Positions 8,670 to 50,000 of a stretch of 64,000 nucleotides of DNA are shown here, in pieces. The stretch spans positions 10,041 to 74,040 of the forward strand of contig JASHPV010000007.1 of assembly GCA_030037875.1 (NCBI GenBank), given 5' to 3'. The stretch is from Thermoplasmata archaeon. GTDB lineage: Archaea; Thermoplasmatota; Thermoplasmata; Lutacidiplasmatales; UBA184. The notes beneath the pieces were generated by a model. That model was not told the origin of the DNA. It did no database searches and worked only from the letters and a program-made list of their open reading frames with translations. The first letter of the stretch is position 1. Each line of letters starts with the position of its first letter. Position numbers and translations under genes: made by a program.

Positions 8670-8933
8670 ATGCGGTTCGGATGGGCGTATTGGCTCCTGG
8701 GAACGCTCCTTGCCATCACCGCGGTGATGCTGGTACCGTCGATACTGATCTCCGCATACAGCGCGGTCCCCCCGCTCCCGTGGACGTTCCTCGCCCTCTA
8801 CGGAACGGTCGCGTTCCTCTGCGCCCTCGGTGCGGCGCTCCTCCTCCGCAGAGGTCGGGTTCTTCTTCACGCGGATTCCATCATCGGTTTAAAGAGCGGG
8901 CACGACGATGAGAGCCGCGGGCCTGTAGCTTAG
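8670..8933 (+). CDS. Small two-TM membrane protein (hypothetical)
   Basis: 87 aa with two hydrophobic helices. Its 3' end overlaps the tRNA 5' end by 16 nt, which lowers confidence. Confidence 0.3.
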   Translation: MRFGWAYWLLGTLLAITAVMLVPSILISAYSAVPPLPWTFLALYGTVAFLCALGAALLLRRGRVLLHADSIIGLKSGHDDESRGPVA

Positions 8934-9027
8934 CTGGGACAAAGCACTGGCCTTCTAAGCCAGCGAACTCGGGTTCAAAGGCCGGCGGGAAGTGATCTTC
9001 CTTTCGGCGGAAACTCCCGACAGGCCC
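8918..9027 (+). tRNA. tRNA-Arg (anticodon TCT) interrupted by a ~35-nt intron in the T-loop (position 59/60 or 60/61)
   Basis: Hand-folded. Acceptor GGGCCTG/CAGGCCC is 7/7 WC. D-stem GCTT/AAGC. Anticodon stem CTGGC/GCCAG with loop CTTCTAA. T-stem TCGGG (8968-72) pairs CCCGA (9015-19) only after skipping 8979/80..9013/14. A14, G18G19, A21, U33, G53, C61 are present. Confidence 0.6.
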
Positions 9028-9036
9028 GCTCGCCCG

Positions 9037-10110
9037 TCACGTCGGCGCGCTGCCGCCCACGAGCGCCGTGCACTTTTCGCAGAGCAGGCCCCTCGGGCCG
9101 GGCGGAATCGAATCTCCGCAGAGCGGGCACGTCGCGCGCGCGTCGGCGGCGGCGAGCAGCTCCGCGACGCTCGTCCGTAGCAACGGGTTCGCGGGAACGC
9201 CGGCCGAGCTGGGAGGAGAGCGAAGCCGGTCGGCGGACGGAGCGACCGCCTCGAGTTGCGGACGGTACTGCCCCGTGGGGCGGTCGAGCAGGACCAATCC
9301 CTTGGCGCTGAGGGTCTCCAAGCTCGACGTGGCGCGCTCTCGTACACCGCCGAAGACCGGCGCGAGGTCGATGGCAGTGACGCCCCGGGTTTCGAAGACG
9401 ATCTCGAGCGCCCGCGCGTTGGGCAGCGAGACGTCGCCCCGCGCGAGGTACCGGTCGAGCGCATGCGACACTCGAGAGGAACGGCGAACGTAGGCGACTC
9501 CCCTCAAGCGACCGTGCCGCAGATCCGGGAGCAGCCCGTTGTCGATGAGGTCGAGCTCGTAGCGAAGACGTTCCTCGGAAAGGTAGAGGAGGACGGCGGT
9601 GGAGAACGGGACGATCCCCGTCTGTCGCACGAACTGCGCCCACTCCGGCGGCGTGAAGAGATCGCTTCGAGGCGTCTTGCTGGGAACGCCGCGGGTCGCC
9701 TCCCGGTCCTGGAGCGCCGACCGGGGGAGGTACGTGTCGCGGAGGAGCAATCGGGCCATCGCCCGCACAGGGGTCGGGTCCGGGCCCAGCGGGACCAGCG
9801 TCGCCGCTCCGTCTTCTTCGATCGAAAGGGACCGGATCGGTCGCAAGAATTCCCACGCCGGGTCGGTGTCCACCGCCTGGGGAAACTCCAGCGTCAGGTG
9901 GTCGAAGGGGGTCTCGGATAGCAGGCCGTGGAGGATGGAGGGATACTCGGTCCCGTCGACGCGGGGAACGTAGGGCGTGAGCTTCTCGCGGCGCCGGGCC
10001 CGGTACTCCTCGAACGCTCGGTCGAGGGCCCGCCCGGAGTACTTGTCGTGAAGCTCCGGGGCTCCTCGACTGGCGATGGCGTGCAGTTCATCCGGCGACG
10101 CGCCCGTCAT
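9037..10110 (-). CDS. Hypothetical protein with winged-helix-like region and C-terminal Cys4 zinc ribbon (putative regulator)
   Basis: Internal ATG (MTGASPDEL..., 10110..10108) of ORF 9037..10281. C-terminal CPLCGDSIPPGPRGLLCEKC. Overlaps the GT4 gene stop by 23 nt, which suggests cotranscription. Confidence 0.45.
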   Translation of the reverse strand: MTGASPDELHAIASRGAPELHDKYSGRALDRAFEEYRARRREKLTPYVPRVDGTEYPSILHGLLSETPFDHLTLEFPQAVDTDPAWEFLRPIRSLSIEEDGAATLVPLGPDPTPVRAMARLLLRDTYLPRSALQDREATRGVPSKTPRSDLFTPPEWAQFVRQTGIVPFSTAVLLYLSEERLRYELDLIDNGLLPDLRHGRLRGVAYVRRSSRVSHALDRYLARGDVSLPNARALEIVFETRGVTAIDLAPVFGGVRERATSSLETLSAKGLVLLDRPTGQYRPQLEAVAPSADRLRSPPSSAGVPANPLLRTSVAELLAAADARATCPLCGDSIPPGPRGLLCEKCTALVGGSAPT

Positions 10111-11293
10111 TCGGTCTCCGTTCGTCCAGTAACATTTCGTAGAGAGCCATAAATCGAGTGGCGGTCCGTTCGATCGACGCCTCCCGACGCACGTACTCGA
10201 TCGCCGCGCGGCCGAGCCGATCCCGCTCGGAGCCGCTCGCGAGCAGGCCGGCGATTGCCGCGGCCAGCGCCCCGCTGCCATCCGGCGGCACGAGCCTCCC
10301 CGTCACGCCGTCCTCGATGAGCTCCCCCGGGCCGCCCACGTCGAAGGCGAGACAGGCCGACCCGCAAGCCATCGCTTCCAGGAGCGCCATCGAGGAGGTG
10401 TCCGAGGTCGATGGGAGAACGAACAGTTCCGACTGGGCGAGCAGGGAAGCCTTCTCCTCCTCGGCGATCGGACCGACGTACCGGACCCTTCCCGAGAGCC
10501 GGGGGTCGGAGCGGATCCGCTCCCGGACCCGCGTCTCTTCGGGACCCGCGCCGGCGACCAAACCGGCGAAGTCCTCTCGGCCGCTCAGGTCCGCCAGTGC
10601 ATCCAGGAAACGATGGATGCCCTTGTCGATGGTGAGCCGGCCGAAGTACGTTACGAGGGGAGCGGACGGGAGACCACAGCGCTCCCGCCAGTCGGGCACC
10701 GAGATACCGGGGTGGAAGCGTTCCACCTCGATGCCGTTCGGCACCACTTCCACCGGTCGCCGGAACGGCTTCCGGCTGTGCGCGACCACCCAGTTCTTCG
10801 CCGGCTGACTGGGAACGGTCGTGACGTCGCATCGGTAGTAGGAACCGAGCGCGTACCAGGAGGCCACACGGAAGAAGAACCGGATGGGGAGGGTCCGCGG
10901 AAAGCTCCCGCGCATCTCCCAGACGTTCGTGTGGAACGTCCCGACGAGCGGTTTCCGTAGGTGCCGTGCGGCGAGAAACGCCGTGCTTCCCATGATGCCC
11001 GGCGTGTGGAGGTGCAAGAGGTCGAACCGTCGGAAGTTCCGACCCCGTAGCTGCGAGAACGGGAAGATTCCCCATCGGTACTGTCCGTAGAGGGGGACCG
11101 GCAGGGAGCGGCTGCGAACGATCGTTACTCCATCGGCGGAGGTCTCCTCCGGGGTCGGTCCCCCGACGGGGCTCGGGGCGAACACGGTCACCGGATGGCC
11201 GAGCTCCGTCAGCTCCCGGGCGAGCGCGCTCGTGACCGTCGCCACGCCGTCGCGCGTCGGCAGATAGCTGTCGGTGAAGAACGCGACCTCCAT
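10088..11293 (-). CDS. GT4-family (GT-B fold) glycosyltransferase
   Basis: 401 aa. C-terminal EAMACGSACLAFDVGG...GVTG motif (E-x7-E type) is typical of GT4 retaining glycosyltransferases. Confidence 0.85.
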   Translation of the reverse strand: MEVAFFTDSYLPTRDGVATVTSALARELTELGHPVTVFAPSPVGGPTPEETSADGVTIVRSRSLPVPLYGQYRWGIFPFSQLRGRNFRRFDLLHLHTPGIMGSTAFLAARHLRKPLVGTFHTNVWEMRGSFPRTLPIRFFFRVASWYALGSYYRCDVTTVPSQPAKNWVVAHSRKPFRRPVEVVPNGIEVERFHPGISVPDWRERCGLPSAPLVTYFGRLTIDKGIHRFLDALADLSGREDFAGLVAGAGPEETRVRERIRSDPRLSGRVRYVGPIAEEEKASLLAQSELFVLPSTSDTSSMALLEAMACGSACLAFDVGGPGELIEDGVTGRLVPPDGSGALAAAIAGLLASGSERDRLGRAAIEYVRREASIERTATRFMALYEMLLDERRPNDGRVAG

Positions 11294-15530: not shown

Positions 15531-15818
15531 GACTTGGCCCTGGTTGTCGTCCGAAGGGTTCGACAGCCATCGAAGTCCTCGCCGAGAACTCAGGCTGGAT
15601 GGGAAGTGGACTGGGCGAGATTTCCCGGTGCCGGAGGAGACGCCTCCGGCCCCTTTGAACTCGCGACCTCTACCTTGCCAAGGTAGCGATCTTCCGCTGA
15701 TCTACCAGCCCACCGAGGCGGCGGAGTACGGCCGGACAATAAGCACTTCGCCGCAGGGGTGCCCGTTCGCTGCCGAAATGGAAGAGTTAATGGGGACGTG
15801 GCCCGTCCGCGCCCACCG

Positions 15819-19651: not shown

Positions 19652-20221
19652 GTGCCGAATGGACTGGAGATTGCGGTAGCGGTCCAGGCGCTGCTCGCCA
19701 TCTGGATTGGCGTGCGCTCGTACGGCAGCTATCAGGGCCGGCTCTACTCCACCGGCCGGGTACTGATCTTTCCGGTCTTGATCCTCCTCGTGTACGCCGC
19801 GACGGAGCTCGAGACGATCGCTACGGTGCCGTGGGCGTTTCCGACCTGGACGTCGGTCGACCTGGTGGTCCTAGTCGCTGCGGCCCTCGCGACCCTGCCG
19901 ATAGCAAACCGCTTGGTTCGAGTCTCGCAACGCTCGGACGGGCAATGGTACTATCAGTACGGGATCGAATTGATCGGATTTTACCTCGCCCTATGGGTGG
20001 CCCGATTGGCCCTCGCCGCGTATTACGACCCGGCCTCGCTCGAGTTCGTTATATCGTCGACCGCCGCCCCCCTGTCCGCGGCCACCTCGGCCGTTCTCGT
20101 CCTCATCCAAGGCCTCTTCTCCGTCAGCTCCGGGCTGGTCATCGGTCGTGGCATCGGTACCTATCGGCTCCACCGACAGGCCGAGCGGCGCGCCGCCTCC
20201 GTGGTAGCTCAGGCCCGCTGA
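19652..20221 (+). CDS. Hypothetical polytopic membrane protein
   Basis: 189 aa with ~5 hydrophobic helices. Followed by a T-rich stretch (gagttttttcg, ~20322), a likely archaeal oligo-T terminator. Confidence 0.5.
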   Translation: MPNGLEIAVAVQALLAIWIGVRSYGSYQGRLYSTGRVLIFPVLILLVYAATELETIATVPWAFPTWTSVDLVVLVAAALATLPIANRLVRVSQRSDGQWYYQYGIELIGFYLALWVARLALAAYYDPASLEFVISSTAAPLSAATSAVLVLIQGLFSVSSGLVIGRGIGTYRLHRQAERRAASVVAQAR

Positions 20222-20222
20222 C

Positions 20223-20237
20223 TCCCCTCTCTCGGAA
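20223..20237 (+). repeat. 15-bp direct repeat CCCCTCTCTCGGAAC (copy 1), flanking a low-GC islet
   Basis: Exact 15-mer recurs at 21197..21211. The ~1 kb between the copies is visibly lower in G+C than its surroundings. Confidence 0.5.
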
Positions 20238-20354
20238 CCGGCTCGAATAGCGTTCGATCCTTGAGGAATGAGTGATCAACCGCAAGTTAGTCAATCGCGG
20301 TCGAGGTAAGAGTGAAAATAAACGGAGTTTTTTCGTTAACTTCACCGCAGGGTT

Positions 20355-21050
20355 ATGCCCGCCGAACTAGCCGGCCGCCGCCGTCGAGCCACCGTCGCAG
20401 TTATTCTTGTGGTGATTTTGGTTATCGCTTCTGTCGTGCTGTATGTTCAATTTGGGGTTCACTCATCTACAGTGGGCATAACGGCGTACGACGCGAACTC
20501 TACGGATATCGCGAACCTAACTTCGCTTCCGGGAACAGGCCATGTCAGGGTGCTCTACCTGAACTCCACGGCTTTCGCGAATGAGTCGGCGTACCCGAGT
20601 TCGACGTTGACCTTTTCGAGCATGATTGGGGCCTTCTATGTCGGCCACCCTTACAACTACTTCCAATTTTTCATTAACTTCAGCCTCACCGGACATTTCG
20701 CCCCCAACTTGCAGCCGGAGGAAATCACGATCTCGGCCAGCGACGTGGGGCCCTACAACAACTCTGCTGCGCTCTTCGGAATTGGGCAGCCCGGGTCCTT
20801 GGATAATCTCTCGACGCCCAACTCCATCCTTCAGTTCACCGGTAACAACTCAAGTGCCATTTCCTTTGACGTCGAAACTAGTTCCTCGGCAGGCTCAGAC
20901 TGGCATGGGTTCTCCCTGGAGAACTGGCGATACCAGTTCCTTCTCGGTTCGTACGCAGGCAACCACTTGCTTCGCCTTAACGCCTCGTTGCTCGGCCTAA
21001 GCCGCTCGGTCTGGATTCAACAAAGTGTCAAGATAATGGATGTTCAGTGA
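20355..21050 (+). CDS. Sequon-rich secreted/anchored protein with basic-then-hydrophobic N-terminus (possible class III/pilin-like signal)
   Basis: MPAELAGRRRRATVAVILVVILVIASVV... followed by >=10 N-x-S/T sequons (NST, NLT, NES, NFS, NNS, NLS, NAS). Encoded in the low-GC segment between the direct repeats. Confidence 0.5.
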   Translation: MPAELAGRRRRATVAVILVVILVIASVVLYVQFGVHSSTVGITAYDANSTDIANLTSLPGTGHVRVLYLNSTAFANESAYPSSTLTFSSMIGAFYVGHPYNYFQFFINFSLTGHFAPNLQPEEITISASDVGPYNNSAALFGIGQPGSLDNLSTPNSILQFTGNNSSAISFDVETSSSAGSDWHGFSLENWRYQFLLGSYAGNHLLRLNASLLGLSRSVWIQQSVKIMDVQ

Positions 21051-21196
21051 AGTAGAAAATGTACCGACCGGTCGTGTCAAGAAAGCGACGACCTACAGGA
21101 GCGGTGGCATGTGCGGTTCTCTTGGCCTCGGTTGGAATGATCGGGCTTTCGATTGGGAAGGAAACTGCCCGGGTATCTTCTCCCCTCGTCTCTCTG

Positions 21197-21211
21197 CCCC
21201 TCTCTCGGAAC
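21197..21211 (+). repeat. 15-bp direct repeat CCCCTCTCTCGGAAC (copy 2)
   Basis: Second exact copy, ~100 nt upstream of dnaK. See copy 1 at 20223. Confidence 0.5.
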
Positions 21212-21234
21212 TCACGGAATCTCCTTGAGTAGTC

Positions 21235-21242
21235 TTTTTATA
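21235..21242 (+). promoter_or_regulatory. TTTTTATA TATA-like box plus downstream inverted repeat GCGCCC-ttt-GGGCGC (21271..21285) in the dnaK 5' region
   Basis: AT-rich box ~70 nt upstream of the dnaK ATG. A 6-bp perfect inverted repeat lies in the putative leader. Confidence 0.3.
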
Positions 21243-21309
21243 GTAGTGAAAGCATTCTCCTGACGCTAAAGCGCCCTTTGGGCGCGACCTACAAAGAGGC
21301 ATCCCAGTT

Positions 21310-23211
21310 ATGGCGAAAATCATTGGAATCGACCTAGGAACGAGCAACTCGGCGGCGGCCGTCCTTGAGGGCGGGCGCCCCGTGATCATCCCGAGCGCGG
21401 AAGGCACGACCGTCGGTGGCGGAAAGGCCTTCCCGTCGTACGTGGCTTTCGCGAAGGATGGCCAGCTGATCGTCGGCGAACCGGCCCGGCGACAAGCGGT
21501 CTCCAACGCGCAGTACACGTTCACCGCGTTCAAGCGAAAGATGGGCACCGATTATCGGTACCGCGGACCGGACGGCAAGGAGTACACCCCCCAGCAGCTG
21601 TCCGCGTTCCTCCTCCAGAAGATCAAGCGTGATGCCGAGGCCTTCCTGGGCGAGAAGATCCAGAAGGCGGTCATCACCGTCCCTGCGTACTTCAACGACA
21701 ACCAGCGCCAGGCCACCAAGGACGCCGGCCAGATCGCGGGGCTCGAGGTCGTTCGGATCATTAACGAACCGACGGCCGCGTCGCTCGCGTACGGCCTCGA
21801 CAAGGCCGGGAAGTCGCAGAAGATCCTCGTCTTCGACCTGGGCGGTGGAACGCTCGATGTGACAATCATGGAGTTCGGCGAGGGCGTGTTCGAGGTCGTC
21901 TCGACCAGCGGAGACACCCAGCTGGGTGGGACCGACATGGACACGACGCTGGCCGACTACATCGCGGGAGAGTTCCGGAAGGAGTCGGGCATCGACATCC
22001 GGACCGACAAGATGGCGATGCAACGCGTCCGGGACGCCGCGGAGAAGGCGAAGATCGAGCTCTCCTCCACGCTGGAGACGCAGATCAATCTCCCCTTCCT
22101 CACCGCCACCAGCGAGGGCCCGAAGCACCTCGCCCTGACCCTTTCGCGAGCGAAGCTCGAAGAGCTCCTTCGGCCGCTCATCGACCGCTGTAAGGCCCCC
22201 GTCGAGCAGGCCATCTCCGATGGCAAGCTTTCGAAGGAGCAGATCGACCGGATCATTCTCGTCGGCGGCCCGACCCGGATGCCGATGGTACAGAAGTTCG
22301 TGGAACAGCTGATCGGTCGTCCGATCGAGCACGGCGTCGACCCGATGGAATGCGTCGCGATGGGCGCTTCGATCCAGGCCGGCGTGCTTGCCGGCGAGGT
22401 CAAGGACATCCTGTTACTGGATGTGACGCCCCTCTCGCTCGGCGTGGAGACGATGGGCGGCGTGTTCACGAAGCTCATCGAGCGCAACACGACGATTCCG
22501 ACGCGGAAGAGTCAGATCTTCACGACGGCGGCCGACAGCCAGAGCTCGGTCGAGATCAAGGTCTCCCAGGGCGAGCGGCCGATGGCTTCCGACAACGTGG
22601 CCCTAGGGAACTTCATGTTGACCGGCATCCCGCTCGCGCCGCGCGGTGTCCCCCAGATCGAGGTCTCGTTCGACATTGATGCGAACGGTATCCTCAACGT
22701 CTCCGCGAAGGACCTCGCGACCGGGAAGAAGCAGGGCATTACGATCACCGCCTCGACCAAGCTCTCGAAGGAGGAGATCGACCGGATGCTGAAGCAGGCC
22801 GAGCAGTTCGCCTCCGAGGACAAGAACCGGAAGGAGCAGGCCGAGACCCGCAACCGGGCGGAAGCCCTGACCTACGAGGCCGAGCGCATCCTGACCGACG
22901 CGAAGGACAAGATCCCGGAGGCCGACGCGCAGGCCGTGCGCGCCAAGGTCGAGGAGCTTCGGGCGGTCCTCGACTCCAAGGACCTCTCGGCCCTGAAGCA
23001 GAAGACCGACGAGCTGACGCGCGCGATCCACCAGGTCTCGCAGAAGCTCTACGAGTCGGCGCAGCAGGCGCCCCCTTCCTCGGGATCGCCCGAGGAGCCG
23101 TCGACGGGGCCGACCGAAAGCGGCGGTTCCTCGCCGCCGGGGAGCGGGCCGGTGGACGCCGACTTCAAGGTCGTGGACAAGCAGCCCGGCGACGAGAAGA
23201 CCGAAAGCTAG
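21310..23211 (+). CDS. dnaK: Chaperone DnaK (Hsp70)
   Basis: 633 aa. [26 protein letters not shown] and other Hsp70 signatures. No grpE or dnaJ adjacent. Confidence 0.97.
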
Positions 23212-41656: not shown

Positions 41657-41705
41657 TCCGACGGGGATTTTCCGGGCGTCCCACCGGCGAGAAATTTGCC
41701 AAAGG

Positions 41706-41711
41706 ATTTAT
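41706..41711 (+). promoter_or_regulatory. TTTATA box upstream of aglB
   Basis: aaggaTTTATAcggg lies ~50 nt upstream of ATG 41760. Confidence 0.3.
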
Positions 41712-41759
41712 ACGGGCCCCGGACTGCGCGGCCCGCCGGTTCGGGAGATCCGGCCGAGG

Positions 41760-44700
41760 ATGGACTCTGAATCTGGCAGCTGGTGGAGCCGTTACGGCTG
41801 GACGACCACCATCTTGCTCGTTGCTTTCGCTGCGGCGTTCATCGTTCGGGTCATTTTCTCGCTCAGTGTCTTCGAGCAGTGGGGCTGGCTCTACGTCTAC
41901 GGGGGCGGTTCGGATTCGTTCTACCACTGGCGAGTGGCGGACTACATCCTCACCAATCACACGAACCTGATCCACGATTCGCTGCTCAAGTATCCCGTCG
42001 GCGCGACCAATCCACGCGAACCGCTGTTCGACTGGATGAACGCGATCTTGGGGATCATCTTCGCGCCGATCTTCGGCGGAAGCGCCGTCAATGCCGCGGC
42101 TTTCTTCCTCAACCTAGACCCGCCCCTCTGGTCGGCTCTCTCGGTCTTCCCGATCTACCTCATCGGGAAGGAGGTCAGCTCCAAGCGGATGGGCCTCGTC
42201 GCGGCCATCACCTACCCGTTCGTCGTCGGGAGCATTCAGGCCGCCACGTTGGGCTACGCGAACTATCTGCCCTTCTACACGTTCTTCATCCTGATCTACT
42301 TCTACGCCTACCTTCGCACAGCGAAGCTGGTCGGAACCAAAACCTACATCACGAGCTTCCGACACCCAAGTGAGGTCCTGGCCGGTTTGCGGCGGTTCCT
42401 CCGCGAGGACCGCCTCGCGGTGAAGTGGGCGGTCTTCGCCGGCGTCTCGCTGGGCGCGCTCGCACTCGCCTGGCAAGGGTATCCGCTCGCTGTCGCGATC
42501 GTCATCATCTCGCTCGCCGTCATTATGGTGGTCGAGCGGATCCGGCGGATCGATTCGGTCAACCTGTACCTCGCGACGTGGATCGCCGGGCTCGTCGGGT
42601 TCCCGATGGCCGTGCCCTACTACCTTGCCCAGCACCTGTTCGCCACCTGGTTCGACCTCCCGCTGCTGATCTATTTCGGCGGACTCGTACTGCTCTTGCC
42701 GTTCGTGCTCCTGCGCCAGTATCCGTGGGTCGTCACGGTGCCCTTGCTGGGGGGCGTCGTTCTGGCCGGTCTGGCGGGTTTCGCATTCATCGCCCCTGCG
42801 TCGTTCCAGACGCTGATCACGGGCCAGGGCTACTTCGCGAAGACGCTGATCTACTCGACGGTCGCCGAGGCTCAGGCCCCCTCGTTCGATGCGCTTGTGC
42901 TGTCGTACGGGGTCCTGACGTTCTTCCTCGCGTTCGTGGGTCTCGGGCTGTTCGCGATTCACCTGATCCGGCAACGGTTCCGCCGGGAGCACGCCCTCTT
43001 TGTCGTGTTCGCCGTCGTGAGTATCTACCTCCCGGTGTCGGCGGCCAAATTCTTCTACCTCGGTTCGCCGGCCTTCGCGCTGCTTCCCGCGGAGGCACTG
43101 CTCCTCATCCTGGACGTCGCCGGCTACCCGCAACTCCGTCGAACGGCGGCCTCCCTCTCCGGTACCCGGGGTCAGTTCACCGCGTTCCGGCGCGCGTTCA
43201 AGGCCCGCCACGTGCTGGTTCTCCTGCTCATCGTCGTTATCCTGGTGCCGAACGTGTGGTATGCCGTCGACGCGGGAATACCCTACAACACCAAGGCCAC
43301 CTACAGCACCCAGGTCTACGACACGCTGCCCCCGGCGCTCCGTACGACCCCGGCCAACGCGTCGAGCTTCTACCTCGGCGCCTCGGGCACGGAACTCGAT
43401 ACGCCCAATCAGTACGACGAGGCCGGGTACAACTGGCTCGCAACGCAAGATACGAATCTCGCCCCGGCGGCCCGGCCCGCGTTCATCAGTTGGTGGGATT
43501 ACGGATTCCAAGCGATCGCCGAAGGGCAGCATCCCTCGGTCGCCGACAACTTCCAGAACGGTATCCCGGCCGCCGGGAACTTCCTCCTGGCCCAGAACGA
43601 ATCCCTCGCCATCGGCGTGCTCGCCACCACGCTTCTCCAGGCGGAGGAAGAAACGAGCGGATACGCCTACCTTCCTCCGGCGCTCAACGCGATCCTAGCC
43701 TCCGATGGCGTGAACGTCGCCGAGTTGCACACGCTGCTGGCGAACACGTCCGCCGACCTCCCGCTCGTGATCGACCATCCGGAGCGCTACCTCCCGGTCA
43801 ACCCGAAAACGATCACCGCGACCAACGCGATGTTCGACGCGGTAAGCTGGTTCCTCGCCAACACGCTTCCCGAGAACGGAGTGGCGCAGGTGTACGACGA
43901 TATCCAGACCTACACGGGCTGGACGATCCGGTACGCGATGGTCGATGACCGGCTGTTCCCCTTCTCGGGGACGAACACCGGCATCTTCTACGCGCCGGCC
44001 GACCTCACGGGCCGCGTCATCGGGCTGGACGGCGCCCCGACGTCGTACTACACCATCGAGGCGGTCGGCTCGGACGGGAACGTGTACCCGATCAACGCGG
44101 TGCCCTCCGGGGTATCGGTGGTGAACTACGTGCTGAACCAGCTCGCGCCGTTCTACAACTCGATGATCTACCGCATTTACATGGGCTATAACGGGACCGA
44201 CATCGGGCTCAGCGCCGGAATCCCCAGCCTCGAGGGCTCTCTCACGAGTTACACTCCGGAGCCCGGGTGGATGCTCCAGCATTTCGAGGTCGCGTACCGG
44301 ACCGCCTTCTACTCGCCGACGCCCACGACCTCGAGCAGCGCCTGCGACATCGCCACGAACCTCCCGGAGGCGGCCCTCCTCGCAGCGAAGACGAACGGCA
44401 CCGCCAACGTCGGTCCCGACTGCTATTTCTCCAGCGGCGAATCGATCCTGGAGTACTATCCCGGAGAGATCCTCTCGGGCACGGTGACCCTCCCCGATGG
44501 AACCCCCGTCCCGGGCGCCCGTTTGACGGTCTACGACGGCTGGCACATCCCCCATCAGACGGTCCTGACCTCCGCCGACGGAGGGTTCTCCGTGATCCTG
44601 CCGCCCGGGAACGACACCCTGAACCTCACGAGCGGGCCGTTGCAGGGGCTGGCCCAGAACGGCACCGAGCTCCTGGACTCGATTCCCCTGGTCGTGGACC

Positions 44701-47700
44701 CGGCCCTCGGGTTCAGCCTGGAGGCGCCCCCGATCGCCCAGAACTTCGTTCTTCAGCCGGGCTCCGTCAACGGCTTCGTTTACTGGAACGCGACCGGAAA
44801 TTCGACCTACGACTCGTCCGTGGACCCCGTGGCCGTGGGGGCCAACGTTACGCTGGGCGGCCCCGGTCTGCGTACCTACAACGCGACCACGGACACGGAC
44901 GGTAGTTTCCGTCTGACCGATGTCGCTCCCGGGGTCTACAACTTCACGGTGCGAGCCGGAGGCGCAACATTCTCCCAGGGCCAGCTGGCGGTCCGGCCCG
45001 GCGCCGCCGCGAACGCGACGGCCGGGCTCGTCCCGTCGAAGGTCACGGGAACGGTGAAGCTGGAGGACGGAACTCCGGCGGTCGGCGCCACGGTCACGAT
45101 CTCGGACCCGGCCGGGCTGTTGGAGGCCGCGGCGACGAACGGTTCGGGGAGCTACACCTTCGCCAATCTGGTCCCGGGGAACTACTCGGTGAAGGCCGAG
45201 TCGGGCGTCAACCTGGCCGCCAACGCGACGGCCGTGGCGCTCAACCAGACCGTGAAGACCGTGACCCAGAACTTGACGCTCATCCCCGTAGTCCCCGTGG
45301 ACTTCGAGGTCGAGGCCGGAGGGGCCCCCGTGCCGGGCTTCGTGGTCCGGATGACGCCCATCCGGGAGACGTCCGGCCTTCCGGGCGCGCAGGCCCCCCG
45401 GCCGACGGACGCGCTCGTCTTCACCAGCGACGCCACCGGGTACGTCCACGCGAACCTGCCGGCCGGCAATTACTCCATCTATGGATACGGACCGGTCGGG
45501 TCGACCTTCCTCGCCGGTTTCGAGAGCGCCTATCTGCCCACCGTCGGGGCCCGCATCGCCGTTGCCCCGCTCCAGCTGTCGCCCGCGGCCTCCCTTTCGG
45601 GCCGATCACCGCTTCCCGCGGAGGTCCCCACCGTCGACCTAAGCGCGACCCAGGTGGCGCTCTATGACAGCGCGGGCAACGAGCTCACCTTCTTCGCGAA
45701 CTCGACCGGCAGCTGGTCGGTCATGGCCCCCGTGGGGAATTACAGCGTCCAAGCCTTGGCCGTGGGCATCGCCGCCGGGGCGCTGAACTACTCTGCCGTC
45801 GGTTACGTGGACCTGTCCCGGGCGACCTCTGTCTCGTTGCCGCTGACTCCGGCCTTCCGATACTCTACCCAGGTGGGAACGCTGGTACCTCCGGACGCCA
45901 CGTTCTACCCCGCCTCCGCTTCCGAGGTGCACCTTACGGTGAACCCCGCGGGTGCGACGATCAGCACGCTCACCGATTACAACGGTTCGACGAGCTTCCT
46001 GCTCCCGACGGCCGAACCGGATACGACGTACTGTCTCGCGGTCCAGAGCAACGGGTACGGAAGCTACTCCGCCTGCAGCCTCTCCGTCGGCGAGCTGACG
46101 GCGATTTCACGGGTCATTCTTCCATTGTTCAACGACACATTGAGCGTGACCGTGACCGGATTACCGTCCGGAGCTATGTTACGGCTCAACGCCACGTCGC
46201 TCGGCCCGCCGGCCCAAACCCTATCGGTGGCCGGCGGCGCATCCTTTGATGTCTCGTTGGCGCCGGGGACGTACCAAATCACGGCGTGGGCCCCACCCGC
46301 GTCCGGCGCGGGGGTCTATCTCCCCGCTCAATCCGTCAACGTCACCCTCCCGTTGGGAGGGATCACCGTGAGTTTGGGGGTCCAGCTGTACTTCCAGTTG
46401 GCCGCCAAAGGGGTTCTGAGCCTCCCGACCGGGGTGACGGCCTCCGCGGTCCAACTGAAAGTGTACGCGCCCCCGTTCAACTTCTCGGTGTCGGGGACGG
46501 TCTTCGAGAAAGGATTTGACATCGCTCCGGGAGTCTACTCGGTCTACGCCTCCGCCCTGGTCTCCGGGGTGAGCTATGCTTCGTTGAGTCAGGTCACGGT
46601 GAGCTCGAGCGGCGTCGCCACGCCGACCGTGAGCCTCGCGAGCGGCGTGTCCTTGACCGCGACGCTCGTCGGCCCGGGAGGTGCGCCCCTCAATCTGACC
46701 GCGCCCGTGTACTGGAGCGGGCCCGACGATTCCCAGCTCTACTCCGTGGCCGTGGACGGCACCGTGACGCTCTCGCTCCCCGGCAGCGCGATATACACGC
46801 CCCAGCTGAACGTCACCCTCACCACGAGCGTGAACGGCATCCTCCGGTACGTGACCTACGCGGTGGTGCCCGGGACCAGCTGCTCTGTCGGAACGACGGC
46901 CTCCGAGTGCTCGATCCCGCTCTCCGCGACGTACCTCGCCGCCGGCATCGCAGGTCAGTTCGACTGGAACGGCGCCCCGCTCACGATCCCGGGTACCGTG
47001 CAGCTGATGGGGCCGTTTCCGTCGACCAACATCTCGGTGGTCACGACGACGAACGGCCTGTTCACAGCCGCTGTGTTGCCAGGAGTCTACACCCTGTACG
47101 CCACCGCCGGGTCGGGCGCGGGGGTCGTCGCGAGCCTGGTGCAGGTCACGGTTCCGTTCCCTTCGACGAACATCACGGTCGACCTCGCTCCCGCCTGGAC
47201 CGACACGCTCACCCTGCTCGCGCCGAGCGGAGTCTCGTCCTCTCCCACCGGGAATGTGACTTGGACGAACGCGGCGGGGGTCTCCTGGACCGTGTCGGGT
47301 GTGCCGCTCGGTGTCGTGGAGGGCTGGGTCCTTCCGCAGGGCGTCTGGACGGTGTCGGCCAACGGCACGATGGCACCTTACGGACGCCCGGTGTCGGCAC
47401 TCGCGACCGGCACCGTGTCGTTGGTGACAGGAAACCAGGCCACCAACCTCGTGCTGATCCCTCAGTTCACCCCGGCCGTGACGATCGCGACCCGGCTTCC
47501 CGACACCGCCACGGTGCCGGCCGGCGGCCTCGCGACCTTCTCGTTCACCGTGCAGAACACGGGGAACGAGCCGGTGACCATCCGCTTCTACGGCGACCCG
47601 GCGGCCTGGAATTTCACGTTCACGCCGGCCACGATGACGCTCGGGGTGGGCTCCGGGAACTCGACCGGGGGAGGTACGGTGTTGGTCCGAATCCCGTTGG

Positions 47701-48320
47701 GCACGGACACGAACCACCCGCCCGTCGTCCTCGGCGCCGTGCTCGTGTCGAATCGCGCGCAAACCGTGGGCACTTCGGTTCCCTCCCCCACGGTCTCCAT
47801 CATCCCGGTACCCGCGATTACCGTGGGCCCCGGCTTGAGCCCCACGGTGACGCTGAAGACCGCGACGGTGAGCTTTGTCGTCCAGAACACGGGGAACTCT
47901 CCTTACTCGGCCGCGGTGAGCGTCGTCAACCAGGCGGAACTGGAACAGCTCGGCTGGTCGGTCGCGTTGATGAAGGGCCTCGGCGCGGTGACCGCGCCGT
48001 ACGACTTCGCGCCGGGTCAATCGATCACGTTCTCGGTCGTGCTCTCCACAACTTCCTTCGCCCAGGCGCCGGGTACCGTGGTGGTTCAGGCCGTCGACCT
48101 GAATTCGTCGGGCAACGTCGTCGCGTCCGCGGAGCTCCCGGTGCCCATCGCCTCCATCGCGGCCCCGAGCGGTATCTCCGTCAGCGGCCCGAACGTCGGC
48201 TCCCCGCCCATCATACCAGACTGGGGGTGGACCGTGATCGCCATTCTCCCCGCGGTGGCCTTCCTCGGGATCGTGCTAACGGTCCGATGGTGGCGTACCC
48301 GCCGGTGGACCCGGAGGTGA
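41760..48320 (+). CDS. aglB: Oligosaccharyltransferase AglB (STT3 family) with a very long C-terminal extracytoplasmic extension and C-terminal TM anchor
   Basis: 2186 aa. N-terminal ~13-TM STT3 core with WWDYG motif (FISWWDYGFQA). ~1300 aa of repeated beta-sandwich-like segments (GTVTLPDGTPVPGARLTVYDG, GTVKLEDGTPAVGATVTISD). Ends ...ILPAVAFLGIVLTVRWWRTRRWTRR. Confidence 0.85.
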   Translation: MDSESGSWWSRYGWTTTILLVAFAAAFIVRVIFSLSVFEQWGWLYVYGGGSDSFYHWRVADYILTNHTNLIHDSLLKYPVGATNPREPLFDWMNAILGIIFAPIFGGSAVNAAAFFLNLDPPLWSALSVFPIYLIGKEVSSKRMGLVAAITYPFVVGSIQAATLGYANYLPFYTFFILIYFYAYLRTAKLVGTKTYITSFRHPSEVLAGLRRFLREDRLAVKWAVFAGVSLGALALAWQGYPLAVAIVIISLAVIMVVERIRRIDSVNLYLATWIAGLVGFPMAVPYYLAQHLFATWFDLPLLIYFGGLVLLLPFVLLRQYPWVVTVPLLGGVVLAGLAGFAFIAPASFQTLITGQGYFAKTLIYSTVAEAQAPSFDALVLSYGVLTFFLAFVGLGLFAIHLIRQRFRREHALFVVFAVVSIYLPVSAAKFFYLGSPAFALLPAEALLLILDVAGYPQLRRTAASLSGTRGQFTAFRRAFKARHVLVLLLIVVILVPNVWYAVDAGIPYNTKATYSTQVYDTLPPALRTTPANASSFYLGASGTELDTPNQYDEAGYNWLATQDTNLAPAARPAFISWWDYGFQAIAEGQHPSVADNFQNGIPAAGNFLLAQNESLAIGVLATTLLQAEEETSGYAYLPPALNAILASDGVNVAELHTLLANTSADLPLVIDHPERYLPVNPKTITATNAMFDAVSWFLANTLPENGVAQVYDDIQTYTGWTIRYAMVDDRLFPFSGTNTGIFYAPADLTGRVIGLDGAPTSYYTIEAVGSDGNVYPINAVPSGVSVVNYVLNQLAPFYNSMIYRIYMGYNGTDIGLSAGIPSLEGSLTSYTPEPGWMLQHFEVAYRTAFYSPTPTTSSSACDIATNLPEAALLAAKTNGTANVGPDCYFSSGESILEYYPGEILSGTVTLPDGTPVPGARLTVYDGWHIPHQTVLTSADGGFSVILPPGNDTLNLTSGPLQGLAQNGTELLDSIPLVVDPALGFSLEAPPIAQNFVLQPGSVNGFVYWNATGNSTYDSSVDPVAVGANVTLGGPGLRTYNATTDTDGSFRLTDVAPGVYNFTVRAGGATFSQGQLAVRPGAAANATAGLVPSKVTGTVKLEDGTPAVGATVTISDPAGLLEAAATNGSGSYTFANLVPGNYSVKAESGVNLAANATAVALNQTVKTVTQNLTLIPVVPVDFEVEAGGAPVPGFVVRMTPIRETSGLPGAQAPRPTDALVFTSDATGYVHANLPAGNYSIYGYGPVGSTFLAGFESAYLPTVGARIAVAPLQLSPAASLSGRSPLPAEVPTVDLSATQVALYDSAGNELTFFANSTGSWSVMAPVGNYSVQALAVGIAAGALNYSAVGYVDLSRATSVSLPLTPAFRYSTQVGTLVPPDATFYPASASEVHLTVNPAGATISTLTDYNGSTSFLLPTAEPDTTYCLAVQSNGYGSYSACSLSVGELTAISRVILPLFNDTLSVTVTGLPSGAMLRLNATSLGPPAQTLSVAGGASFDVSLAPGTYQITAWAPPASGAGVYLPAQSVNVTLPLGGITVSLGVQLYFQLAAKGVLSLPTGVTASAVQLKVYAPPFNFSVSGTVFEKGFDIAPGVYSVYASALVSGVSYASLSQVTVSSSGVATPTVSLASGVSLTATLVGPGGAPLNLTAPVYWSGPDDSQLYSVAVDGTVTLSLPGSAIYTPQLNVTLTTSVNGILRYVTYAVVPGTSCSVGTTASECSIPLSATYLAAGIAGQFDWNGAPLTIPGTVQLMGPFPSTNISVVTTTNGLFTAAVLPGVYTLYATAGSGAGVVASLVQVTVPFPSTNITVDLAPAWTDTLTLLAPSGVSSSPTGNVTWTNAAGVSWTVSGVPLGVVEGWVLPQGVWTVSANGTMAPYGRPVSALATGTVSLVTGNQATNLVLIPQFTPAVTIATRLPDTATVPAGGLATFSFTVQNTGNEPVTIRFYGDPAAWNFTFTPATMTLGVGSGNSTGGGTVLVRIPLGTDTNHPPVVLGAVLVSNRAQTVGTSVPSPTVSIIPVPAITVGPGLSPTVTLKTATVSFVVQNTGNSPYSAAVSVVNQAELEQLGWSVALMKGLGAVTAPYDFAPGQSITFSVVLSTTSFAQAPGTVVVQAVDLNSSGNVVASAELPVPIASIAAPSGISVSGPNVGSPPIIPDWGWTVIAILPAVAFLGIVLTVRWWRTRRWTRR

Positions 48321-48410
48321 GCGGATCTGTCCACGTGGTCTGACCGGCGCGCCCTCCGTCTCCTGGCCTGTGTAGGGCTCCTGGCAATCCTGGCCTTCAC
48401 CCTCCTGGGT

Positions 48411-49151
48411 TTGCCGGCCCCGGCTCACGCCTCGACAACCTATCCGAAGATCATGGAGACGACGACCGGTCCCTCGGTGGTGGGCCGGACGCTCCAGGTG
48501 CAGTACGTGGTCACCGGCTCCGGCGGACCGGCGGAGGCGCCGAACGGGACCACCGTCGGCAACATCACGTACAACGCAACGCTCAGCGGGAACAACGTCA
48601 CCTCCGCGCTGATCGCGCCGCCCACGGGCGTCCTCGTGAACGGGAGCGTGATCCTCCGATTCACCGCCCCCAACGTGACGGAGCTCGTCAAGCTCCGCAT
48701 CGAGCTGACCTCGAGCTACGACAACCACAACGAATCGATGAACTTCACCAATTCGATCCAGGTCGTGCCGCCGTACGTCCTCGCCGGACTCCTGGTCGCC
48801 GGCCCGACCACGGTCACCGGGTTTAACATGACCGTCACGCTCGACGGCGTACCGGTCGGCCAGGTGGTCGTGCCCACGATCTCGGCGAACGGGTCGTACC
48901 GGTTCACCTACGACTACGTACCGGTGAGCCTGAGCCCCGGTTGGCATACGATCGCCGTCTCGCTCACGCCCGAGCACGGCCTGGTGACGTTCCAAGGCGG
49001 CGTGGAGCAGCTGAGCGCGCAATTTTTCATCACCAGTGCGCCGCCCGACTACGCGCTCGATGTGGGGATCGGCGTCGCCGCCTTCGCCGTGGCCGTCTTT
49101 ATATGGGGCTCGGTGGTGGGCGCGCGCCGCCGGGGCCGGCGGCCTCGCTAG
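48411..49151 (+). CDS. Sequon-rich surface protein with C-terminal TM anchor plus Arg-rich tail. True N-terminus (signal peptide) lies in frame upstream, directly after the aglB stop
   Basis: Track start is TTG 48411. In-frame upstream codons 48321..48410 encode ...DRRALRLLACVGLLAILAFTLLGLPAPAHA|ST, a classic signal peptide, with no ATG/GTG/TTG. Sequons NGT, NIT, NAT, NVT, NGS. C-terminal ...FAVAVFIWGSVVGARRRGRRPR. Confidence 0.5.
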   Translation: MPAPAHASTTYPKIMETTTGPSVVGRTLQVQYVVTGSGGPAEAPNGTTVGNITYNATLSGNNVTSALIAPPTGVLVNGSVILRFTAPNVTELVKLRIELTSSYDNHNESMNFTNSIQVVPPYVLAGLLVAGPTTVTGFNMTVTLDGVPVGQVVVPTISANGSYRFTYDYVPVSLSPGWHTIAVSLTPEHGLVTFQGGVEQLSAQFFITSAPPDYALDVGIGVAAFAVAVFIWGSVVGARRRGRRPR

Positions 49152-49167
49152 GCCCCGGCATGAACCG

Positions 49168-49341
49168 ATGATCGCGCGCGCGGACCTCCGGTGCACCTCG
49201 TGTGGCCGGGGCTTGACCGCTCCCGGAGCGACGGCGTTTCTCTGTCCGTCCTGCGGCATCGAGACCATCGGACGCGATGCCCGGTGCCGGGACCAGAGCG
49301 TGCCGTACAAGTGCACGAACTGCGGCTTCGTGGGTCCCTGA
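49168..49341 (+). CDS. Small zinc-ribbon protein (conserved partner upstream of aEF-1beta)
   Basis: 57 aa: MIARADLRCTSCGRGL...FLCPSCGIE...CRDQSVPYKCTNCGF. Confidence 0.6.
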   Translation: MIARADLRCTSCGRGLTAPGATAFLCPSCGIETIGRDARCRDQSVPYKCTNCGFVGP

Positions 49342-49622: not shown

Positions 49623-49955
49623 TCGCCCTCGGGGACGCGTGCTCGCGGTCCCGTACGGGCAGTTTCTCGAGGCGTATCTCCTCGCTTACGGGACCGTGGG
49701 GTACGGGCCTTGACACCTGGCCGCCGGAATCCGGGTCTCCCTCGCTCCCAACGGAACGGCGTGCACGAAGTCGTCGTAGCTCAATCCCAGCACCTGGACA
49801 GAGGGGTTCGCGGAGAGGCTCGTGCCGGCCTCGGCGCGGCGCTCGGAACACCTCGCAAACCCTTTTCTCCCGAGTTACTCTGGTTCGCGCGCGGCCGGGA
49901 TGGGGTAGTCTGGCCTATCCTGGGGGACTGTGGATCCCTCGACCCGGGTTCAAAT

Positions 49956-49980
49956 GGGGACGGGGACACCCCCCGTCCCC
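49956..49980. other. Perfect 10-bp stem hairpin GGGGACGGGG-acacc-CCCCGTCCCC in the intergenic region between convergent genes
   Basis: Read directly in the sequence. Lies ~20 nt beyond the stop of the minus-strand HAD gene and inside the tRNA-like region 49890..50000. Confidence 0.3.
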
Positions 49981-50000
49981 GGAGAGTCTCGGTCCCGGCC

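Follow-up and report, generated by a model that had tools for sequence, protein, structure and literature searches.

The window analysed here, a stretch of 64,000 nucleotides (nt) from a Thermoplasmata archaeon (GenBank assembly GCA_030037875.1, contig JASHPV010000007.1, positions 10,041 to 74,040 of the forward strand), harbors a complete gene for a giant homologue of the archaeal oligosaccharyltransferase (OST) AglB/STT3. The gene occupies window positions 41760..48320 (+) as a single uninterrupted open reading frame (ORF) with an ATG start and a TGA stop, and encodes 2186 amino acids (aa). It is followed by a conserved, co-oriented partner gene (48321..49151, +), which was recognised from its homologues and from synteny. 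To our knowledge, no enzyme of archaeal N-glycosylation other than AglB is universal, and all characterised AglBs that we know of have a single membrane domain and a length of ~600-1000 aa. A first-pass annotation, made from the letters of the window, had described the protein as an AglB core with the WWDYG motif, of excess length, extended by ~1300 aa of recurring beta-sandwich segments with many sequons and ending in a hydrophobic helix plus basic tail. These elements were all recovered, and the three peptides quoted in that annotation (GTVTLPDGTPVPGARLTVYDG, GTVKLEDGTPAVGATVTISD and VRWWRTRRWTRR, the last being the end of the protein) were located in the translated sequence. The length is ~2.5 times that of AglB-L from A. 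fulgidus (AfAglB-L, 868-875 aa). The residues at the catalytic site and the downstream partner gene, both described below, are points beyond the earlier description.

The G+C content at third codon positions (GC3) of the AglB frame lies between 0.81 and 0.91 in each 600-nt block, and tandem DNA repeats are absent within 41700-49200, so that nothing hints at a collapsed or chimeric assembly. A 2186-aa protein with 99% identity to that of the window is present in the databases. In a word-indexed search with the window protein, 321 homologues were obtained, of which the best 120 clusters have lengths of 2117-2231 aa, 46-99% identity and 95-100% query coverage (nearly all 99-100%). Their assemblies stem from NCBI, JGI, ENA and Logan, and several of them are located on contigs of 0.4-2.2 Mb. 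The first-pass annotation had named a frameshift or a chimeric contig, with the C-terminal region belonging to a separate gene, as the explanation that would undo its description. Apart from the unusual length nothing speaks for such an artificial fusion of an AglB with a surface protein, and it can be dismissed with near certainty: it is ruled out by the 99%-identical protein and by full-length homologues in more than 119 other clusters, by the recurrence of the same architecture at 31-43% identity, by the uniform GC3, by the absence of repeated DNA and by conserved synteny.

An exhaustive HMMER search with aa 1-880 against 1.84 billion representatives clustered at 50% identity resulted in 275 hits below 1e-30. 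Among the best 150 of these 275 representatives, 89 are 2000-2780 aa in length, and a hydrophobic C-terminal helix, usually followed by Arg/Lys, is found in 87 of the 89. Relatives of the window protein thus routinely carry an AglB of such size, the other circumstance that, according to the first-pass annotation, would speak against its view. The claim that the architecture is unusual therefore stands in comparison with characterised AglBs but fails at the level of the lineage, where 2117-2231 aa is the rule in the window's own clade. The gene is a real and ordinary member of a large family and represents an architectural variant of AglB; the surprise is a property of this family and not of the locus in the window.

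Judged by names and GTDB loci, the window's clade consists of metagenome-assembled genomes (MAGs) of Thermoplasmata, largely from acid soils, with Candidatus Lutacidiplasma silvani among them. Of the 80 best GTDB loci, JOPF056 is closest, at 83% identity. Relatives with 35-38% identity are encoded in genomes of the DHVE2 group and of Methanomassiliicoccales. Besides the giant proteins, mid-length forms of 1100-1290 aa exist; the three that were examined have one Pfam CarboxypepD_reg domain each, and such forms mostly lack the C-terminal anchor. The largest forms show the layout STT3, CarboxypepD_reg array, CARDB and transmembrane (TM) helix. In NCBI, members of the family are labelled “carboxypeptidase regulatory-like domain-containing protein”, “glycosyltransferase family 39 protein” or “hypothetical protein”. 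Since these names do not mention AglB, name-based surveys could score the respective genomes as AglB-less. Neither full-text literature searches nor the publication on Lutacidiplasmatales with its supplementary material yielded a description of giant AglBs. Two short contigs filed under bacteria, DATEYD010000233.1 (“Candidatus Paceibacterota bacterium”) and CAZATH010000135.1 (“uncultured bacterium”), carry relatives of the AglB core with 35-36% identity and are probably mis-binned archaeal contigs.

The first ~890 residues constitute a complete long-type AglB with 13 TM helices and an extracellular globular domain, the catalytic face likewise being directed to the outside of the cell. The membrane domain (aa 1-505; 41760..43274, +) shows the glycosyltransferase C (GT-C)/STT3 fold according to Pfam, the helices of an AlphaFold2 (AF2) model and Foldseek, and all hydrophobic segments of the protein fall within aa 1-503, apart from one at 2157-2175. 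Pfam STT3 (PF02516) matches aa 20-486 with an E value of 7.8e-9 and 36 bits at a cutoff of 24.5. The globular domain (aa 506-892; 43275..44435, +), assigned by a weak AglB_core-like match, a partial match to the NCBIfam model TIGR04154 and Foldseek, contains WWDYG (aa 578-582; 43491-43505, +) and ADNFQ. In a phmmer search against PDB sequences, aa 6-619 aligned to AfAglB-L (3WAJ, E 8e-8). The AF2 model of aa 1-1000, computed from a 36-sequence alignment, reached a mean predicted local distance difference test score (pLDDT) of 72.8, and its top Foldseek matches were again AfAglB-L (7E9S with E 5e-19; 3WAK with a template modelling score of 0.59, range 0.57-0.59), followed by human and yeast STT3 and bacterial PglB. 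The assignment as AglB is based on this agreement of sequence and fold, on the Pfam STT3 match above its cutoff and on the invariant motifs described below. The core is at the same time the most conserved part of the protein, with 61-63% identity to distant members versus 30-44% for most of the extension (domains D2-D13, see below).

Between the core and the C-terminal helix, 13 domains were parsed from the modelled strand pattern and a recurring (L)PxGxY motif. D1-D11 (aa 893-1888; 44436..47423, +) are eleven transthyretin/CarboxypepD_reg-like beta-sandwich domains, and D12 and D13 (aa 1891-2128; 47430..48143, +) are two CARDB/DUF11-like immunoglobulin (Ig) domains, assigned by sub-cutoff hits and hhalign. 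They are followed by a Pro-rich linker of low model confidence (aa 2129-2155; 48144..48224, +). For aa 987-2186, AF2 predicted an all-beta structure (mean pLDDT 83.8) that ends in a lone helix at aa 2156-2180. Pfam CarboxypepD_reg (PF13620) matches four stretches (E 6e-32), with D1-D3 above the gathering score and D4-D6 weak. Comparison of family sub-alignments by hhalign grouped D1-D11 as homologues, each matching one or more of the others with a probability of 90-98% (78% for D6), and paired D12 with D13 (88%), neither of which was linked to D1-D11. The matches of D12-D13 to the DUF11 repeat, CARDB-like and choice-of-anchor T/D models were all below cutoff; CARDB is found at this position in distant giant AglBs. 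The structural matches listed for the extension model were exclusively non-enzymatic beta-sandwich modules. Models of NOMO domains gave no significant match along the chain, and no coiled coil is predicted in the window protein.

In its degree of conservation D1 equals the catalytic core, on which it probably packs, whereas D2-D13 are fast-diverging. Invariant Cys pairs occur in D6 and D9, and charged residues are scarce in the extension. Altogether the protein contains 38 NxS/T sequons. The section of aa 891-2140 has 32 of them versus 10.3 +/- 2.8 in composition-preserving shuffles (z = 7.6), an enrichment of ~3-fold. In the family, the median number of sequons in the extension is 37 versus 13 expected, and many of the positions are conserved.

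The C-terminal hydrophobic helix, visible in the hydrophobicity pattern as well as in the AF2 model, is the 14th TM helix (TM14, aa 2156-2180; 48225..48299, +) and second membrane anchor. It runs into an Arg/Trp tail, RWWRTRRWTRR (aa 2176-2186; 48285..48317, +), which is predicted to be cytoplasmic and is nearly invariant in the clade; after the fast-evolving D2-D13, helix and tail are thus conserved again. The last 100 aa gave no NCBIfam match at E <= 5, and the end reads PDWGW...RWWRTRRWTRR without PGF; a known archaeosortase/exosortase sorting signal such as PGF-CTERM was accordingly rejected. The 13 core TM helices, the known topology of AglB and the positive-inside rule together predict that the stretch of ~1650 residues from TM13 to TM14 is extracellular and that the tail is cytoplasmic. 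As both ends of the chain would be located in the same membrane, the string of domains is expected to rise over the enzyme as a loop or arch.

The partner protein consists of ~265-275 aa and shows a signal-like N-terminus, a sequon-rich ectodomain of ~190 aa, a C-terminal TM helix and a basic tail, which reads GARRRGRRPR in the window and is of the RRRGRR or KRKKRKKK type among homologues. A CARDB domain is recognised in partner homologues with 27 bits at a cutoff of 22.7. Partners of the Lutacidiplasmatales type and of Methanomassiliicoccales are homologous, with 26% identity over 216 aa and a pairwise E value of 1e-7. In the relatives with Lutacidiplasmatales-type genomes that were examined, the partner gene starts 1-7 nt past the AglB stop, and in a Methanomassiliicoccales chromosome the two genes share 4 nt. 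The homologues of the partner form 104 clusters, and for at least 19 of them the longest contig is of the same size as that of a giant AglB cluster. AglB and the CARDB partner therefore represent a conserved two-gene module. That the partner arose by duplication of D12-D13 together with the anchor was considered and rejected, as no significant similarity was detected.

The start of the partner gene in the window shows a peculiarity. The gene is in the same frame as AglB directly past the TGA, where the signal-like segment RRALRLLACVGLLAILAFTLLGLPAPAHA is encoded. Upstream of this segment no ATG, GTG or TTG is present (48321-48455); a CTG at 48327 is located roughly at the position of the Met in the homologues. 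The first canonical start is ~90 nt downstream of the AglB stop, and a 100%-identical partner protein in the databases was called from an internal Met with 232 aa. Candidate starts are the CTG at 48327 and an ATG at 48453. The gene may use a non-canonical start, translation may reinitiate once the AglB stop has been passed, or the signal peptide may have been lost in this genome.

Taken as a whole, the protein is, with somewhat better than even confidence, to be regarded as the lineage-typical AglB of a Thermoplasmata archaeon of the Lutacidiplasmatales group, a single chain with two membrane anchors in which a still active enzyme would carry a glycosylated extracellular arch and serve, together with the CARDB partner, as an envelope scaffold. 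The enzyme is taken to be a working one in view of the core being the slowest-evolving part and of the invariance of D52, E370 and WWDYG. D52 in GGSDSF (41913..41915, +) aligns with the catalytic D47 of AfAglB-L and is kept in 120/120 family members with a residue at this position. The TIXE motif of external loop 5 is present as TVAE (T367 to E370; 42858..42869, +), whose Glu aligns with E360 of AfAglB-L. Conservation was counted over 120-121 family members with 44-99% identity, among which TVAE and WWDYG are invariant (WWDYG in 121/121), as is ADNFQ over 121 sequences. The catalytic roles of D47 and of the TIXE Glu E360 have been described for AfAglB (PMC7226087).

Several observations weigh against this reading, and the most serious ones concern the active site itself. 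The second DXD metal-binding motif is absent: a gapless alignment places GYANYL (G165 to L170; 42252..42269, +), which has no acidic residue, on GFNDHH of AfAglB with D161-H-H163, where distant giant AglBs have DHD. The position of R154 in AfAglB is A161 in the window and Ser in most of the clade (ERS in distant relatives). Furthermore, the conserved Arg of NRF in AfAglB and of SAxRF in distant relatives was not found; K430 in SAAKFF (43047..43049, +) takes its place, and Lys is present throughout the clade, a conservative change. Residues D161, H163 and R154 are part of the metal site of AfAglB, D154 and D156 of PglB are the counterpart of the second DXD/DXE/DXH motif, and the Arg contacting the phosphate of the lipid-linked oligosaccharide is R375 in PglB and R404 in yeast (PMC7226087). 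In terms of AfAglB, D161/H163/R154 and the NRF Arg thus correspond to N168/L170/A161 and K430, which amounts to D to N, H/D to L and R to S/A at the second DXD subsite and R to K at the lipid-phosphate Arg. Beyond the active site, the match to TIGR04154, the archaeosortase-A-associated AglB subfamily, covers aa 17-808 with 228 bits and stays under the 450-bit cutoff, the catalytic loops of the AF2 core model are of low confidence, and the surroundings of the gene are housekeeping genes, not glycosylation or S-layer genes. In addition, we infer the shape of the extension (an arch or a compact bundle) as well as its glycosylation and its role in the envelope.

The substitutions leave room for a pseudo-enzyme, in which the STT3 core of the NYL clade would be non-catalytic and confined to sequon or peptide binding or to scaffolding; the protein would then be mainly a surface glycoprotein, and another AglB would glycosylate. 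The changes are indeed invariant in the clade, with NYL in 121/121 sequences including members of ~40% identity that read TFSNYL or TFGNYL, while more distant giant and mid-length relatives retain xDHD and the Arg. Other clades of giant or long AglBs vary the second motif as well (xGRMH, GLFD, GGYD, ARHY), and the scores for STT3 and TIGR04154 are weak. Nevertheless, invariant D52, E370, WWDYG and ADNFQ together with a core evolving more slowly than the extension are unlike relaxed selection on a dead active site. In general, a divalent cation can still be ligated by Asn and phosphate can still be bound by Lys. Two weak tests for another AglB were likewise negative: no second WWDxG was found in a six-frame translation of the 64-kb window, and no second locus of the same assembly occurred among the 80 best GTDB loci. 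A dead enzyme is therefore an unlikely explanation, though one to be taken seriously. Under the favoured reading of a working AglB, the sequence changes suggest that the NYL clade may have an active enzyme with changed metal or lipid-phosphate handling. The variants GRMH, GLFD, GGYD and ARHY in other clades indicate that changes of the metal subsite appear to have arisen several times within Thermoplasmatota. As a compensating acidic ligand, E87 in NPREP was considered and rejected, as NPRAP is found together with NYL, and NPREP or NLREP with DHD.

According to the proposed mechanism, the core would transfer a lipid-linked glycan to the Asn of sequons, by analogy with other AglBs. The chain would leave the membrane outward after TM13 and be brought back by TM14. 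At ~4 nm for each of the 13 domains, an arch could reach ~20-25 nm and might bear ~30 N-glycans, attached by the enzyme itself or by its neighbours. The extension and the presumably co-transcribed CARDB type-I membrane protein could then act as a glycosylated envelope scaffold or spacer tying the transferase to the surface coat. D2-D13 may be spacers, which their fast evolution would fit. The coupling of N-glycosylation to cell-surface architecture, brought up by the first-pass annotation, is plausible: a glycosylated extracellular arch is predicted, and both the second anchor and the CARDB partner are conserved.

Alternatively, the beta-sandwich chain, TM14 and the CARDB partner might be accessory subunits in cis, a module around the core for substrate handling or docking to the translocon rather than an element of the envelope. 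The resemblance in design to eukaryotic OST, where ribophorin I/II and OST48/Wbp1 act as accessory subunits with luminal beta-sandwiches and a single TM helix, and to NOMO of the BOS complex of the endoplasmic reticulum invites this comparison, but it is one of design only, and these proteins are separate polypeptides. D2-D13 evolve rapidly and resemble all kinds of transthyretin/Ig modules to the same degree, none of the best 50-60 rows of each structural search is an OST accessory subunit, and 13 domains far exceed what a docking module needs. We consider this alternative distinctly improbable. Much the same applies to a broader view, which we mention as a long shot: the OST in much of Thermoplasmatota could be a self-contained “enzyme plus scaffold”, with a beta-sandwich/single-TM accessory module, such as eukaryotic OST and the NOMO complex possess in trans, supplied in cis and via the CARDB partner, the arch as a principal building block of the envelope, and in Lutacidiplasmatales a remodelled site without the second DXD and with a possibly different metal dependence.

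Among known systems, AfAglB-L (PDB 3WAJ/3WAK/5GMY/7E9S) shares the 13-TM GT-C core followed by the extracellular globular domain with WWDYG and is the best match of aa 1-~890 in sequence and fold. It ends at ~868 aa, where the window protein adds 13 beta-sandwich domains, TM14 and the basic tail. Other giant AglBs of Thermoplasmatota (Methanomassiliicoccales QLH74806.1 and DHVE2 MAGs) have the same order of STT3, AglB core, CarboxypepD_reg array, CARDB and TM anchor and also a CARDB partner of ~265 aa downstream; they differ in keeping DHD and the Arg and in lengths of up to 2780 aa. The S-layer anchor SlaB of Sulfolobus (PDB 8QOX chain B) carries no known enzyme domain, has a single anchored end and contains a coiled coil, whereas the window protein has an enzyme core, two anchors and no predicted coiled coil.

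Thermoplasmatota comprise lineages from soil, gut and vents, and some members lack an S-layer. A family of doubly anchored AglBs of 2000-2800 aa with a fixed partner across several orders of this phylum would provide a physical link between N-glycosylation machinery and cell surface. The giant AglB would be a natural single-chain analogue of the multi-subunit eukaryotic OST, and the clade-wide loss of the second DXD would provide a natural test of how far the metal subsite is indispensable.

Concerning the genomic context, the gene order is conserved and comprises pyruvate:ferredoxin oxidoreductase, a homocitrate/isopropylmalate-synthase-like gene, the large and small subunits of aconitase, isopropylmalate dehydrogenase, thiolase, DUF35, AglB, the partner and aEF-1beta. 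CoaBC and succinyl-CoA synthetase are further neighbours. A local glycosylation gene cluster is ruled out by these metabolic and housekeeping genes; the one glycosyltransferase found is of the GT4 family (10088-11290, -), ~30 kb off, and was the only other glycosylation-related gene among 20 other ORFs scanned.

Elsewhere in the window, ARAGORN detected a tRNA-His at 49894-49984, which with 91 nt is long enough for an intron. Two tRNA matches were obtained with Rfam but were not called by ARAGORN, namely 8919-8977 (59 nt, 35.5 bits) and 15656-15711 (56 nt, 29.1 bits); these may be intron-containing or atypical archaeal tRNAs. At 20001-22000, a stretch that just precedes a DnaK/HSP70 gene (21310-23211) and reaches into it, the GC content drops to 0.59, versus 0.64-0.69 in the remainder of the window.

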